A DNA stretch of 64,000 nucleotides from Escherichia coli. Its GTDB lineage: Bacteria > Pseudomonadota > Gammaproteobacteria > Enterobacterales > Enterobacteriaceae. The stretch lies in assembly GCF_011045215.1 (NCBI RefSeq), contig NZ_CP049201.1, one strand, 5' to 3'. Of this stretch, positions 36,218 to 46,498 are shown piece after piece; the first letter of the stretch is position 1; the number at the start of each line of letters is the position of its first letter. The position numbers were made by a program, and so were the translations under genes. The notes under the pieces are model-generated. The model ran no database searches and was not told where the DNA came from. It saw only the letters and a list, made by a program, of their open reading frames with translations.

Positions 36218-36255
36218 TGTAGGCCTGATAAGACGCGTGAGCGTCGCATCAGGCA
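36218..36255. repeat. REP element between cysI and cysH
   Basis: tgtaggcctgataagacgcgtgagcgtcgcatcaggca. Confidence 0.75.
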
Positions 36256-36275
36256 AGGCAAACAGTGAGGAATCT

Positions 36276-37010
36276 ATGCCCAAACTCGATCTAAACGCCC
36301 TGAACGAACTGCCGAAGGTAGATCGCATTCTGGCGCTGGCAGAAACTAACGCCCAACTGGAAAAACTGGACGCTGAAGGCCGCGTAGCCTGGGCGCTGGA
36401 TAATCTGCCCGGTGAATATGTGCTTTCTTCCAGCTTCGGCATTCAGGCGGCGGTGAGCCTGCATCTGGTGAATCAGATTCGCCCGGATATTCCAGTGATC
36501 CTCACCGATACCGGTTACTTGTTCCCGGAAACCTACCGCTTTATTGACGAGTTAACGGACAAACTCAAGCTCAACCTGAAAGTGTACCGTGCTACCGAAA
36601 GCGCAGCCTGGCAGGAAGCACGCTACGGAAAACTGTGGGAGCAGGGCGTTGAAGGCATTGAAAAGTACAATGACATCAACAAAGTCGAACCGATGAACCG
36701 GGCGCTGAAAGAACTTAACGCGCAAACGTGGTTTGCTGGCCTGCGCCGTGAACAATCCGGCAGCCGCGCCAATTTACCGGTGCTGGCAATTCAGCGTGGC
36801 GTATTTAAAGTGCTGCCGATTATCGACTGGGATAACCGAACTATTTATCAGTACCTGCAAAAACATGGCCTGAAATATCACCCATTATGGGACGAAGGAT
36901 ATTTATCGGTGGGCGATACCCATACAACTCGTAAATGGGAACCCGGCATGGCGGAAGAAGAAACGCGTTTCTTTGGCTTAAAAAGGGAATGTGGGTTACA
37001 CGAAGGGTAA
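36276..37010 (+). CDS. cysH: phosphoadenosine phosphosulfate (PAPS) reductase
   Basis: ATG at 36276 ([14 protein letters not shown]...) gives 244 aa; the track ORF extends upstream through the REP; C-terminal ECGLH motif. Confidence 0.95.
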
Positions 37011-37274
37011 TTAATGCCGGATAAATTAAACGCCTCTGTCAGAAATGATGGGGGCGTTTTTATTTTGCGAGCAGCATTCCTGATTTTAAACGTGAACGCC
37101 GCTGGAAGAATTATCAGGTATAGAATGGCGTCGGGTGCTTGAGGCTGTCTGGCGTTAAGCATTCGCGAGGTTCCAGATGGACAAAAGCCCCAGGCGATAT
37201 TTCTATCAACCTGAGGCCAGCGTTCGAACCTAAGCAATTCGAATGTTAGTCTCTTCTTTGCAGGGAGGCAAGAC

Positions 37275-37427
37275 ATGCTGACAAAATATGCCCTTGTGGC
37301 AATCATCGTACTGTGTTGTACAGTACTGGGATTCACGCTGATGGTAGGCGACTCGTTGTGTGAGTTGAGTATCAGAGAACGTGGTATGGAGTTTAAGGCT
37401 GTTCTCGCTTACGAATCGAAGAAGTAG
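37275..37427 (+). CDS. Hok/Gef-family type I toxin (50 aa)
   Basis: Not in the ORF track. ATG at 37275 preceded by GGGAGG; [50 protein letters not shown] has one TM helix and the Hok signature (CE..IR...E..A.LAYES). Same intergenic position as the K-12 hokX/sokX locus, as far as I recall. Confidence 0.75.
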
Positions 37428-37619
37428 CCACCACGCGGGGGTAAAACCCCGCGTATTGAATTGTGATGGTTTGGTCTCCTGCACCCTTTTTTAAATTTAT
37501 ATTTTTTATGTGAATATATTGTCTCTATTTATTATTATGAATTTCAAATGAAAATCATAAATTTATTCACAATATAAATGTTTTATTGGCTGATATATAT
37601 CACAGATAATTTTTAAAAT

Positions 37620-40319
37620 ATGCGTAAATATCCTTTAAGTTTACTGAAGGATAAAAATATTGTGACTTTCTTTGATTTCTGGGGAAAAACCCGACGCGAC
37701 GAGAAAGAAGGGGGTGACGACTATCACCTTCTTTGCTGGCATTCGCTGGATGTGGCCGCGATGGGCTATTTAATGGTTAAAAGAAATTGCTTCGGGCTGG
37801 CTGATTATTTTCGTCAATTAGGGATTTCTGACAAGGAACAGGCGGCTCAATTTTTCGCCTGGTTGTTGTGCTGGCACGATATTGGAAAATTTGCCCGCTC
37901 ATTTCAGCAACTTTACCTGCACCCACAACTCAAGGTTCCGGAAGGCGCAAGAAAGAATTACGAAAAGATCTCTCATTCAACGCTGGGCTACTGGTTGTGG
38001 CATCATTATTTAAGTGAATGCGAAGAATTGCTTCCTGCCTCTTCACTCTCTACTCGCAAACTTAAACGTGTAATAGCGATGTGGATGCCCATGACTACCG
38101 GGCATCATGGTCGGCCCCCTGACCGTATTGATGAACTGGATAATTTTCTGCCTGAAGACAAAGTTGCCGCGCGAGATTTTCTCCTTGAAATCAAGGCACT
38201 GTGTCCGCTCATAGAGATTCCCACATTCTGGGATAATGACGAGGGAGTTGAACTTTTAAAACAACTTTCCTGGTATATCTCTGCAACAGTCGTACTTGCA
38301 GACTGGACGGGTTCGTCAACGCGATTTTTTCCACGCGTCGCACACCCAATGGATATTAAAGATTACTGGCAGAAAACTTTAGTTCAGGCTCAAAACGCCT
38401 TAACCGTCTTTCCTCCAAAAGCAGAAACCGCACCTTTCACCGGAATTAATACGCTGTTTCCTTTTATTGAGCACCCGACACCATTACAGCAAAAGGTGCT
38501 GGATCTGGATATCAGCCAGCCAGGGCCACAGTTATTTATTCTGGAAGACGTGACTGGCGCAGGTAAAACAGAAGCGGCGCTTATCCTGGCGCACAGGTTG
38601 ATGGCTGCGAGGAAAGCACAGGGTTTGTTTTTTGGCCTGCCAACAATGGCAACGGCCAATGCCATGTACGATCGGCTGGTCAAAACCTGGCTTGCTTTCT
38701 TTTCGCCAGAATCCCGCCCCAGCCTGGTGCTGGCACACAGCGCCCGTACATTAATGGAACGCTTTAATGAATCACTCTGGTCCGGTGATTTAGTCGGGTC
38801 AGAAGAACCGGATGAACAAGCGTTCAGTCAAGGATGTGCAGCCTGGTTTGCCGACAGTAACAAGAAGGCTTTACTGGCTGAAATTGGCGTCGGCACGCTG
38901 GATCAGGCGATGATGGCAGTGATGCCGTTTAAACATAATAATCTGCGGCTTCTGGGGTTGAGTAACAAAATCCTGCTGGCTGATGAGATCCACGCCTGTG
39001 ACGCTTACATGTCGTACATTCTTGAAGGGTTGATTGAGCGACAGGTGCGTGGCGGAAACAGCGTCATTTTGCTTTCTGCTACGTTATCTCAACAGCAGCG
39101 CGACAAACTTGTCGCCGCCTTTGCGCGTGGCACAGAGGGCCAGCAAGAAGCTCCGTTCCTGGAAAAGGATGATTACCCCTGGCTGACGCATGTCACGAAA
39201 TCCGATGTGCATTCGCACCGGGTAGCGACGCGCAAAGACGTTGAGCGTAGCGTGAGCGTGGGTTGGCTTCATAGCGAACAAGAATGTATTGCGCGTATCG
39301 AATCAGCGGTAAGTCAGGGGAAATGCATCGCCTGGATCCGGAATTCTGTCGATGACGCTATTAAGGTTTATCGTCAGTTACTTGCCCGCGGCGTCATTCC
39401 TGCTTCCAGCCTTTCACTTTTTCATAGCCGCTTTGCTTTTAGCGATCGCCAGCGAATTGAAACGGAAACGCTGGCACGCTTTGGTAAAAATTGTAGTTTA
39501 AAAAGATCATCTCAAGTCATTGTTTGTACACAAGTAATTGAGCAAAGTGTGGATATTGACCTGGACGAAATGATCTCCGACCTGGCCCCCATTGATTTGC
39601 TGATCCAGCGAGCGGGGCGATTACAACGGCATATTCGCGATATTAATGGTCAGTTAAAGCGTGATGGAAAAGACGAGCGTTCCCCTCCTGAATTGCTGAT
39701 TCTGGCCCCCGTCTGGGACGACTCTCCGGGTGACGAATGGTTTGGCAGTGCGATGCGTAACAGCGCATATGTCTACCCCGATCATGGGCGAATCTGGCTG
39801 ACGCAGCGAGTATTGCGTGAGCAAGGCGCTATTCAGATGCCACACGCAGCCCGGCTTCTTATTGAATCCGTCTACGGTGAGGACGTGGTAATGCCGGAAG
39901 GATTTGCCCGCAGCGAGCAGGAGCAAGTGGGCAAATATTACTGCGATCGCGCAATGGCTAAAAAGTTTATGCTGAACTTCAGGCCCGGCTATGCCGCCAA
40001 TATCAACGATTACCTCCCGGAAAAGCTGTCGACACGTCTGGCTGAAGAGTCTGTTTCCCTGTGGCTGGCTACCTGTATTGACGGTGTGGTGAAGCCTTAT
40101 GCCAGCGGTGCTCACGCATGGGAAATGAGCGTTGCCAGAGTGCGTCGAAGCTGGTGGAAAAAACATCGGGATGAATTTTCTTTACTGGAAGGGGAAGCGT
40201 TCAGGCAGTGGTGTGTTGAACAACGGCAAGATCCGGAGATGGCAAACGTGATTTTAGTCACTGATGACGAAAGTTGCGGGTATTCGGCCAGGGAGGGATT
40301 GATTGGCAAGGTTGATTGA
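37620..40319 (+). CDS. cas3: type I-E CRISPR-associated helicase/nuclease Cas3
   Basis: 899-aa ORF; HD domain (HSLDVAAMG...WHDIGKF), Walker A-like (TGAGKTEA), DEAH-like (LADEIHACD), C-terminal domain; first gene of the cas operon. Confidence 0.93.
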   Translation: MRKYPLSLLKDKNIVTFFDFWGKTRRDEKEGGDDYHLLCWHSLDVAAMGYLMVKRNCFGLADYFRQLGISDKEQAAQFFAWLLCWHDIGKFARSFQQLYLHPQLKVPEGARKNYEKISHSTLGYWLWHHYLSECEELLPASSLSTRKLKRVIAMWMPMTTGHHGRPPDRIDELDNFLPEDKVAARDFLLEIKALCPLIEIPTFWDNDEGVELLKQLSWYISATVVLADWTGSSTRFFPRVAHPMDIKDYWQKTLVQAQNALTVFPPKAETAPFTGINTLFPFIEHPTPLQQKVLDLDISQPGPQLFILEDVTGAGKTEAALILAHRLMAARKAQGLFFGLPTMATANAMYDRLVKTWLAFFSPESRPSLVLAHSARTLMERFNESLWSGDLVGSEEPDEQAFSQGCAAWFADSNKKALLAEIGVGTLDQAMMAVMPFKHNNLRLLGLSNKILLADEIHACDAYMSYILEGLIERQVRGGNSVILLSATLSQQQRDKLVAAFARGTEGQQEAPFLEKDDYPWLTHVTKSDVHSHRVATRKDVERSVSVGWLHSEQECIARIESAVSQGKCIAWIRNSVDDAIKVYRQLLARGVIPASSLSLFHSRFAFSDRQRIETETLARFGKNCSLKRSSQVIVCTQVIEQSVDIDLDEMISDLAPIDLLIQRAGRLQRHIRDINGQLKRDGKDERSPPELLILAPVWDDSPGDEWFGSAMRNSAYVYPDHGRIWLTQRVLREQGAIQMPHAARLLIESVYGEDVVMPEGFARSEQEQVGKYYCDRAMAKKFMLNFRPGYAANINDYLPEKLSTRLAEESVSLWLATCIDGVVKPYASGAHAWEMSVARVRRSWWKKHRDEFSLLEGEAFRQWCVEQRQDPEMANVILVTDDESCGYSAREGLIGKVD

Positions 40320-46170: not shown

Positions 46171-46266
46171 GTTATGTGTTCTTTAAAAATAAGGAAATGT
46201 TTGAATTTAGTTGGTAGATTGTTGATGTGGAATAAATTTGTTTAAAAACAGATATGTATGCTTAGT
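46171..46266 (+). promoter_or_regulatory. AT-rich CRISPR leader (cas2-proximal array)
   Basis: About 95 bp of AT-rich sequence between the cas2 stop and the first repeat. Confidence 0.6.
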
Positions 46267-46477
46267 GTGTTCCCCGCGCCAGCGGGGATAAACCGGTGCA
46301 TAAAAAATGATACCCCAGCGTTTCGTTGTGTTCCCCGCGCCAGCGGGGATAAACCGATTGAAATAGATCTCCCCGACATTAACGAACAGTGTTCCCCGCG
46401 CCAGCGGGGATAAACCGGGCGCACTGGATGCGATGATGGATATCACTTAGAATTCCCCGCCCCTGCGGTAGAACTCC
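46267..46477 (+). CRISPR. CRISPR array, type I-E repeats, 4 repeats / 3 spacers
   Basis: GTGTTCCCCGCGCCAGCGGGGATAAACCG at 46267, 46328, 46389, and a degenerate terminal repeat (gaattccccgcccctgcggtagaactcc) at 46450. Spacers: gtgcataaaaaatgataccccagcgtttcgtt; attgaaatagatctccccgacattaacgaaca; ggcgcactggatgcgatgatggatatcactta. Confidence 0.97.
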
Positions 46478-46498
46478 CAGCTCCCATTTTCAAACCCA

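Follow-up and report, generated by a model that had tools for sequence, protein, structure and literature searches.

The window analyzed here is a 64,000-nucleotide stretch of Escherichia coli DNA. Between cysH (36276-37010) and cas3 (37620-40319, 899 codons), it carries a small gene of the Hok family, hokX, and, on the opposite strand, the gene for an antisense RNA, a homolog of sokX. The hokX coding sequence (37275..37427, plus strand) starts with ATG and encodes 50 amino acids, with one transmembrane helix (about residues 6-24) followed by a periplasmic tail that includes C29 and Y46. A GGGAGG Shine-Dalgarno (SD) sequence lies at 37263..37268 of the same strand, 6 nt before the start codon. 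An earlier, sequence-only reading of this DNA had described the 50-codon ORF exactly as we find it, noted the strong GGGAGG, and proposed a Hok-family gene in the cysH-cas3 spacer. Pfam, Rfam, RefSeq annotation and the literature all bear this proposal out. Taken together, the data presented below make it very probable that this small gene belongs to an intact chromosomal hokX/sokX type I toxin-antitoxin locus.

The gene had also been called unlisted. It is indeed absent from the ORF track used for that reading, but RefSeq lists the ORF at the same site as 'Hok/Gef family protein' WP_000956458.1, identical to the protein of the window and annotated in many E. coli strains. In fact, hokX/sokX is already known at this position: it has a name and a RefSeq annotation, and published studies have charted it across the CRISPR-I arrangements of E. 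coli. Among 237 urinary isolates, hok and sokX adjoin cysH in 90%, and the remainder have sokX alone, 'similar to K-12' (PMC12736100). The hok sok system has been used as a marker of CRISPR-I arrangement and occurs in all strains but those with the E2 cas variant (PMC3903273), and a gene at cysH-iap has been described as a homolog of E. coli B hokX (PMC7232551). In E. coli B and in pathogenic strains the gene goes by the name hokX, and the K-12 small RNA is sokX b4701. The locus of the window occupies the same chromosomal site, on the cysH side of the CRISPR-I region, and is therefore the same locus.

The Hok-like protein and its family

Several lines of evidence place HokX in the Hok family. 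A profile search, suggested earlier as a check, gives a match to Pfam HOK_GEF (PF01848) with an E value of 6.3e-10, extending over the full model (positions 1-42 of 42) and residues 5-46 of the protein. Hydropathy exceeds 2 across residues 1-28. A survey of 1264 Hok peptides identified seven positions conserved in >80% of them, and HokX carries all seven (M1, C14, T16, L28, C29, E30 and E39). Among the K-12 paralogs, HokE is the closest (78% identity), followed by HokA (48%), HokC (37%) and HokB (32%). Scores against two NCBIfam models fall below the curated cut-offs (NF007290, HokA, 53 bits versus 89; NF007279, Hok family, 39.5 bits versus 73), and these sub-threshold matches were left out of the family assignment. 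Both models are built around HokA and other subgroups, so the low scores imply that HokX is not a HokA ortholog and do not contradict family membership. Judged by sequence similarity, HokX is a member of a HokE-like clade.

Codon analysis of 51 related coding sequences yields a pN/pS of 0.215 (pS 0.45, pN 0.10), which indicates that the ORF is under purifying selection. Among 56 loci of the clade, 53 retain an intact 50-aa ORF. Conservation of the ORF as coding, another check proposed beforehand, is thus evident, and the low pN/pS means that hokX is maintained as a coding sequence and that the locus has not decayed. An ORF of only 50 codons, with NCBIfam scores under the curated cut-offs, could in principle have arisen by chance and lack any function. 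The Pfam and Rfam matches, the conservation across genera and the purifying selection refute this idea, and we regard its probability as negligible. Two antisense ORFs on the minus strand, 37230-37484 (84 aa) and 36878-37336 (152 aa), were also considered; neither is annotated in any genome inspected or has other support, and both were set aside.

In one study, 42 of 45 Hok homologs tested were toxic, HokE among them, and by likeness to HokE and the other tested proteins HokX would be a toxin as well. The wild-type chromosomal hokA, hokB and hokC loci are reported, in the accessible portion of the source, not to mediate post-segregational killing, and no post-segregational role is expected for the chromosomal hokX copy. 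The sole expression data that we found come from O157:H7, where RNA-seq and Ribo-seq counts are low over the leader (PMC5331693).

The antisense RNA and the structure of the hok mRNA

The Sok RNA gene, 59 nt long, runs from 37235 to 37177 on the minus strand. Here, the K-12 ncRNA sokX (b4701) maps with 57/59 identity, and the two differences lie in the 5′ tail. The RNA is predicted to fold (-22.7 kcal/mol, z -3.6) into a single-stranded 5′ tail, a long hairpin and a U-rich 3′ end. Its putative promoter, as read from the sequence, spans 37243..37271 of the minus strand, with a -35 element TTGCCT (37271-37266), a spacer of 17 nt and a -10 element TAACAT (37248-37243), 7 nt upstream of the start at 37235. 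With matches at 4/6 positions of each element, it scores below the threshold of our scan (9/12) and is not listed there. Even so, in 51 relatives the -10 columns A-T-n-n-T-A and the -35 columns AGGCAA are invariant, and the invariant -10 columns correspond to the four most informative positions of that element. The sequence-only reading had been unable to delineate Sok and had suggested a search for its promoter; both can be located here. The gene, its promoter, and the hairpin and U-tail, all overlapping the toxin leader, point to a cis-antisense RNA.

The leader is nearly invariant within E. coli, except in the segment that encodes the Sok 5′ tail and its target loop (37218-37234). At least three alleles of this segment are seen: CCAGCG..CCTAAGC, CTTACG..CCCAAAC and CTCGCG..GC-AAGC. 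These alleles may reflect diversification of antisense specificity. We make no claim about a YUNR U-turn in the target loop, as the CUAA present here is absent from the K-12 allele.

Transcription of hok can be assigned to a -10 element, TAGAAT (37121..37126, plus strand), read from the sequence seven bases upstream of GGGTGC. This hexamer aligns with TATAAT, TAAGAT and TAGGAT upstream of K-12 hokC, hokE and hokB, respectively. The sequence contains no recognizable -35 element for hok, and the promoter is therefore probably weak. A scan with consensus promoter and terminator models reports neither the hok promoter nor the Sok promoter, nor any terminator at the mRNA end; the two promoters were assigned only by position and homology. 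The full-length mRNA would extend over 37133..37493 of the plus strand (about 360 nt), from 5′ GGGUGC to 3′ GCACCC followed by U6. Its 5′ end was placed at 37133 because the Rfam model begins there and GGGTGC is invariant in 51 relatives; its 3′ end was placed at about 37493 because GCACCC and U6 lie there and similarity to strains without cas genes stops at this point.

The Rfam model in question is RF01794 ('sok'), which matches 37133-37290 (158 bases) over its full length with 111.7 bits, versus a gathering score of 59. The E value is 1e-24 for the whole window, and no other Rfam family exceeds its gathering score in the 64 kb. The match lies on the hok-sense strand and runs from the mRNA 5′ end to just beyond the hok start, so in practice the model describes the hok leader, and the Sok RNA is the reverse complement of the middle third of the match. 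Annotation pipelines that trust the strand of RF01794 will put 'sok' on the wrong strand.

The full-length RNA (37133-37493) has a minimum free energy of -130.6 kcal/mol (z -3.7). In this predicted structure, a tac element at the 5′ end (37133..37146, GGGUGC..GAGGCU) pairs with an fbi element at the 3′ end (37473..37492, GGUCUC..GCACCC, including the U6 tail). Two helices of 6 bp each are formed, one between GGGUGC (37133-38) and GCACCC (37481-86), the other between GAGGCU (37141-46) and GGUCUC (37473-78), with a probability of being unpaired of at most 0.04. The six pairs of the first helix are kept in 51/51 relatives in the alignment fold. Cognate tac/fbi duplexes have a mean energy of -19.1 kcal/mol and beat 5000/5000 partner shuffles, by a small margin and with relatedness among the loci not controlled for.

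Within the leader, the ucb (anti-SD) element GCCCCAGG at 37187..37194 is predicted to pair with the mok-type SD region CCUGAGGC at 37210-37217 in the full-length fold. RNAalifold placed the ucb partner inside the hok coding region, not at the leader SD. Covariation does not settle the choice, and we retained the ucb/SD pairing of the single-sequence fold because it fits the R1 model.

A third element is the Sok-target hairpin (37213..37254, GAGGC...GUCUC), made up of the mok-type SD GAGG (37213-37216) on one side and dcb (37249-37254) on the other. It forms in the fold of the truncated RNA, and compensatory changes are found at 5 of its 9 predicted pairs (e.g., G-C in 27 sequences and A-U in 20). 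Its 9-nt loop CCUAAGCAA (37229-37237) is complementary to the Sok 5′ tail. In silico, the probability that this loop is unpaired is 0.96 in an RNA truncated at 37454 versus 0.33 in the full-length RNA. This modeled switch matches what is described for R1, whose mRNA has to be processed before it can bind Sok or be translated (PMC9841398).

The truncation point used in these folds is the end of a 3′ stem-loop (37433..37454), a perfect 8-bp helix with arms ACGCGGGG (37433-37440) and CCCCGCGU (37447-37454) and a loop GUAAAA (37441-37446). The alignment fold shows compensatory changes at two of its pairs (e.g., C-G in 30 sequences, U-A in 15). The sequence-only reading had noticed this hairpin and misjudged its extent, giving about 37432-37450 and a loop of 5 rather than 6 nt. 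By analogy with R1, we infer that it represents the protective end of the 3′-processed hok mRNA, a better reading than that of a terminator. In R1, mutations that weaken the equivalent 3′ stem abolish function through RNA decay (PMC9841398).

These elements recur, with variations, in other hok/sok systems. Plasmid R1 hok/mok/sok (parB) has in common with hokX the Hok fold class, an antisense Sok over the leader, the tac/fbi lock, the alternative pairings of ucb and dcb, and the 3′ stem-loop; the R1 locus, however, is plasmid-borne and that of hokX chromosomal. The hokX leader is about 30 nt shorter than the R1 leader. The K-12 loci hokB/sokB and hokC(gef)/mokC/sokC belong to the same family and share its RNA elements, and their Sok 5′ ends align with that of hokX; protein identity to HokX is 32-37%. 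Closest of all is K-12 hokE/sokE, which has the same leader architecture. Its 3′ end has been lost to IS186, whereas the hokX locus here is complete. Decay, which had been raised as one option for this locus, is contradicted by the presence and conservation of Sok, its promoter, tac/fbi, ucb/SD, the target hairpin and the 3′ stem-loop, as well as by purifying selection on the toxin gene.

Distribution and the relation to cas3

In a megablast search with the cysH-cas3 spacer, the region was found in 5425/5426 complete E. coli genomes, always on the chromosome. A query comprising leader, coding sequence and 3′ hairpin (37133-37454) was covered to at least 80% in 4146/5426 genomes (76%). The toxin gene is thus absent from about a quarter of E. 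coli genomes (~24%), and hence dispensable. Most genomes without the full hokX match only the first 145 bases, which is the K-12 state. In MG1655, similarity ends right after the hok ATG (window position 37277), and the remnant holds the annotated ncRNA sokX b4701; across 37015-37277, the leader shares 98.5% identity with K-12. From hok codon 2 on, everything is therefore missing in K-12 and in other strains that have the second cas-E variant; the window carries the full locus. In K-12-type strains, ATCC 8739 included, the toxin coding sequence and mRNA 3′ end are swapped, from 37277/37278, for sequence that leads into the other cas3 variant. This boundary is one junction of the cas-E module exchange. 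The state of hokX in relation to the cas-E variant was compared across 15 inspected genomes.

Beyond E. coli, a scan of species-representative genomes returned the 56 clade loci mentioned above, all in Enterobacteriaceae. The genera include Escherichia, Pseudocitrobacter, Kluyvera, Klebsiella, Citrobacter, Enterobacter, Lelliottia, Kosakonia, Trabulsiella and Phytobacter. The comparative mRNA alignment, like the codon analysis, is based on 51 related loci. In 12 clade loci, those of Kluyvera and Lelliottia among them, cysH lies just upstream, which implies that cysH and hokX were linked before E. coli arose; only 4 loci have cas3 downstream.

Two cases deserve separate mention. In Escherichia albertii NBRC 107761, the converse of the K-12 state is seen: the hok coding sequence (contig positions 122-271) is intact (96% identical), and the sequence directly before its ATG is unrelated to the hokX leader, with tac, Sok and the target hairpin all absent. 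The contig ends 121 nt upstream of hok, and an insertion sequence may be involved. In Pseudocitrobacter genomes, cysH has 97-99% amino-acid identity to that of E. coli, and hokX 98%, which is unexpectedly close for another genus. Transfer of the region or misassignment of the genomes could account for this.

The position of hokX raises the question of a link to the type I-E CRISPR-Cas system. hokX/sokX might serve as an addiction module for the cas operon, or might affect cas3 through read-through or promoter interference. Only 127 nt separate the mRNA 3′ end from the cas3 start codon downstream, no canonical terminator shows up there in the scan, and R1 hok/sok has been linked to phage defense. 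Against this, hokX also resides beside cysH in strains without cas genes, in the order cysH-hokX-iap, and in other genera; in another strain, the locus is followed by IS421. Conversely, strains that have the other cas-E variant lack the coding sequence, and similarity between strains ends exactly at the hok mRNA end. A published survey, moreover, found hok genes near defense systems no more often than chance would predict (12% versus 9.4%). We rejected a functional linkage on the basis of this synteny and the published enrichment test, and consider it very improbable. The adjacency of hokX and cas3 looks incidental.

Two other features of the neighborhood were recorded. A small CRISPR array (46266-46478) lies between cas2 and iap and has three good repeats of 29/30 nt GTGTTCCCCGCGCCAGCGGGGATAAACCG and a degenerate fourth at a spacing of 61 nt, hence only three spacers. 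The spacer between cysI and cysH (36222-36281) contains a REP-like palindrome, which gives a sub-threshold match to Rfam naRNA4 (35 bits versus a gathering score of 59.5).

Control of toxin synthesis

In K-12 hokB and hokC, annotated mok frames begin at an ATG coupled to the leader SD; hokX lacks such a start. In mokB, mokC and 8 of the 51 relatives (Kluyvera, Klebsiella, Enterobacter), the leader SD GAGG is followed after 7 nt by this ATG, which falls within the stretch covered by Sok. In the window, and in every E. coli hokX allele inspected, the triplet at this position (37224-37226) is TCG, and in hokE the aligned triplet is TCC. K-12 hokE likewise has no SD-coupled mok ATG. R1 mok, in contrast, comprises 70 codons and has its own SD and an ATG inside the Sok-complementary region (PMC9841398), whereas the corresponding region of hokX contains no R1-like mok start codon. 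The difficulty that the sequence-only reading had in delineating mok was therefore real.

Other possible mok frames fare no better. The hok frame is open from 37215 on, and after the stop at 37212 it has no ATG, GTG or TTG before that of hok itself, so an in-frame mok like mokC was rejected. ATG 37177 was rejected for the role of mok start as well; the ORF that begins there has 18 codons and stops at TAA 37231, where other strains have CAA or a 1-nt deletion, such that the frame is not conserved.

What is left is a 12-codon ORF in the leader (37243..37281, plus strand), which runs through the hok SD to a TGA (37279-81) overlapping the hok start (ATGCTGA). This ORF is the sole candidate to replace mok, and its status is uncertain. 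An equivalent ATG is found at -32 in 31/51 loci, giving the same 12-codon ORF, and at -33/-36, in frame with hok, in 15/51. The two closest paralogs illustrate these arrangements, the upstream ATG being in frame with the hok ATG at a distance of 36 nt in hokE, and out of frame with it at 32 nt in hokX. Mutagenesis of R1 has shown that translation of mok as far as the hok SD is enough (PMC9841398), which means that a mini-ORF such as 37243-37281 would suffice mechanically. Three caveats apply: this ATG lacks an SD, is separated from the Sok duplex by 8 nt, and coincides, read on the opposite strand, with the final three bases of the Sok -10 box. Its conservation is confounded by this last overlap. 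The invariant hexamer pattern, A-T-n-n-T-A with a variable G, fits promoter constraint better than start-codon constraint.

A second feature that may bear on toxin output is Tyr46. TadA, the A-to-I editing enzyme, acts on TAC followed by G in a hairpin loop resembling the anticodon loop of tRNA-Arg, and in Hok proteins the Tyr concerned is at position 29 or 46. In hokX, TACG (37410-37413) lies in the loop of a hairpin at 37402..37423 (plus strand; UUCUCG-CUUACGAAU-CGA(A)GAA), with the stem taken from the alignment fold. The codon, the following G, the loop and position 46 are all as expected of a TadA substrate, as far as sequence can tell. In the 51 relatives, codons 43-50 are nearly frozen at synonymous sites (GTT, CTC, GCT, TAC, GAA, NCG, AAG, AAG). 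The Tyr46 codon is TAC in 49/51, TGC (Cys) in 2/51 and TAT in none (0/51); by contrast, Tyr5 is encoded by TAT in 28 and TAC in 23. Editing of Tyr46 to Cys has been reported for hokC, hokD and hokE, at about 40% in hokE (PMC12214031, PMC5630033), and around Tyr46 hokX equals hokE save for one loop base. By this analogy, TadA probably performs A-to-I editing in the Tyr46 codon of hokX, changing Tyr to Cys. In hokB, the edited residue is Tyr29 instead (PMC5630033), and the C29-C46 pair matters for HokB toxicity (PMC5630033, PMC12214031).

It has to be considered whether hokX/sokX is a silenced relic, a recognizable module that lost toxin output through the loss of the SD-coupled mok start and persists as a harmless or RNA-only element. 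The canonical mok ATG of K-12 mokB, mokC and 8/51 relatives is TCG here, the frame upstream of 37243 is broken by TAA 37231 in the window and by indels in other strains, and the toxin gene is missing from ~24% of complete E. coli genomes. Chromosomal hok loci are also reported inactive in assays of post-segregational killing. On the other hand, pN/pS is 0.215, 53/56 related loci retain an intact 50-aa ORF, and the strong hok SD is conserved, with GGAGGCAA almost invariant in the alignment of 51 relatives. A leader ORF crosses the hok SD in most relatives, and in R1 translation of mok to the hok SD is enough (PMC9841398). The frozen synonymous sites around Tyr46 make sense only if the protein is made, and 42/45 Hok homologs, HokE among them, proved toxic in one study. 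On balance, we consider a silenced relic unlikely. Of the earlier suggestion that the pair may be decayed or silenced, the former part does not hold; weak or silenced translation is still conceivable, given the loss of the canonical mok start.

We favor an intact locus, which would work as follows. A weak promoter would give rise to an mRNA of about 360 nt (37133-37493) that encodes HokX, a membrane toxin of 50 aa, and a 59-nt Sok (37235 to 37177), made from the opposite strand, would be complementary to its leader. By homology to plasmid R1, the full-length mRNA would be locked by the tac/fbi and ucb/leader SD pairings, which would prevent both its translation and the binding of Sok. The 3′ end would then be trimmed slowly, as far as the stem-loop at 37433-37454, with loss of fbi, as in R1. 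The leader would refold, the target hairpin (37213-37254) would present its loop, and Sok would bind, leading to degradation of the duplex. Once the unstable Sok is exhausted, Hok would be made, insert into the inner membrane and collapse the membrane potential, again by R1 homology. Since hokX has no canonical mok start, translation into the hok start region would proceed from the leader ORF (37243-37281) or from hok's own strong SD. Tyr46 would probably be recoded to Cys by TadA, making a C29-C46 disulfide possible, as reported for other Hok proteins.

Most members of the HokE/HokX clade, including all E. coli hokX alleles sampled, have no SD-coupled mok start and instead have an ATG in the Sok -10 box; the frame that it opens either stops after 12 codons, across the hok ATG, or continues in frame into hok and extends Hok at its N terminus. 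Perhaps, then, control of toxin translation in this clade has moved off classical mok. If that ORF, or no leader ORF at all, drives hok translation, Sok would act mainly through mRNA decay or steric occlusion beside the duplex and not by masking a ribosome-binding site of mok. Toxicity would then be subject to a second gate, the editing of Tyr46 by TadA. We offer this as a tentative idea, with the odds somewhat against it.

As a discovery, the hokX/sokX locus has little value, and its practical use is in annotation. Gene tracks with a size cut-off would miss hokX, and this strain carries the complete version of a locus of which K-12 keeps only the orphan small RNA sokX. The missing mok start and the frozen TACG hairpin, on the other hand, are small, testable points that bear on how chromosomal Hok toxins of this clade are restrained.
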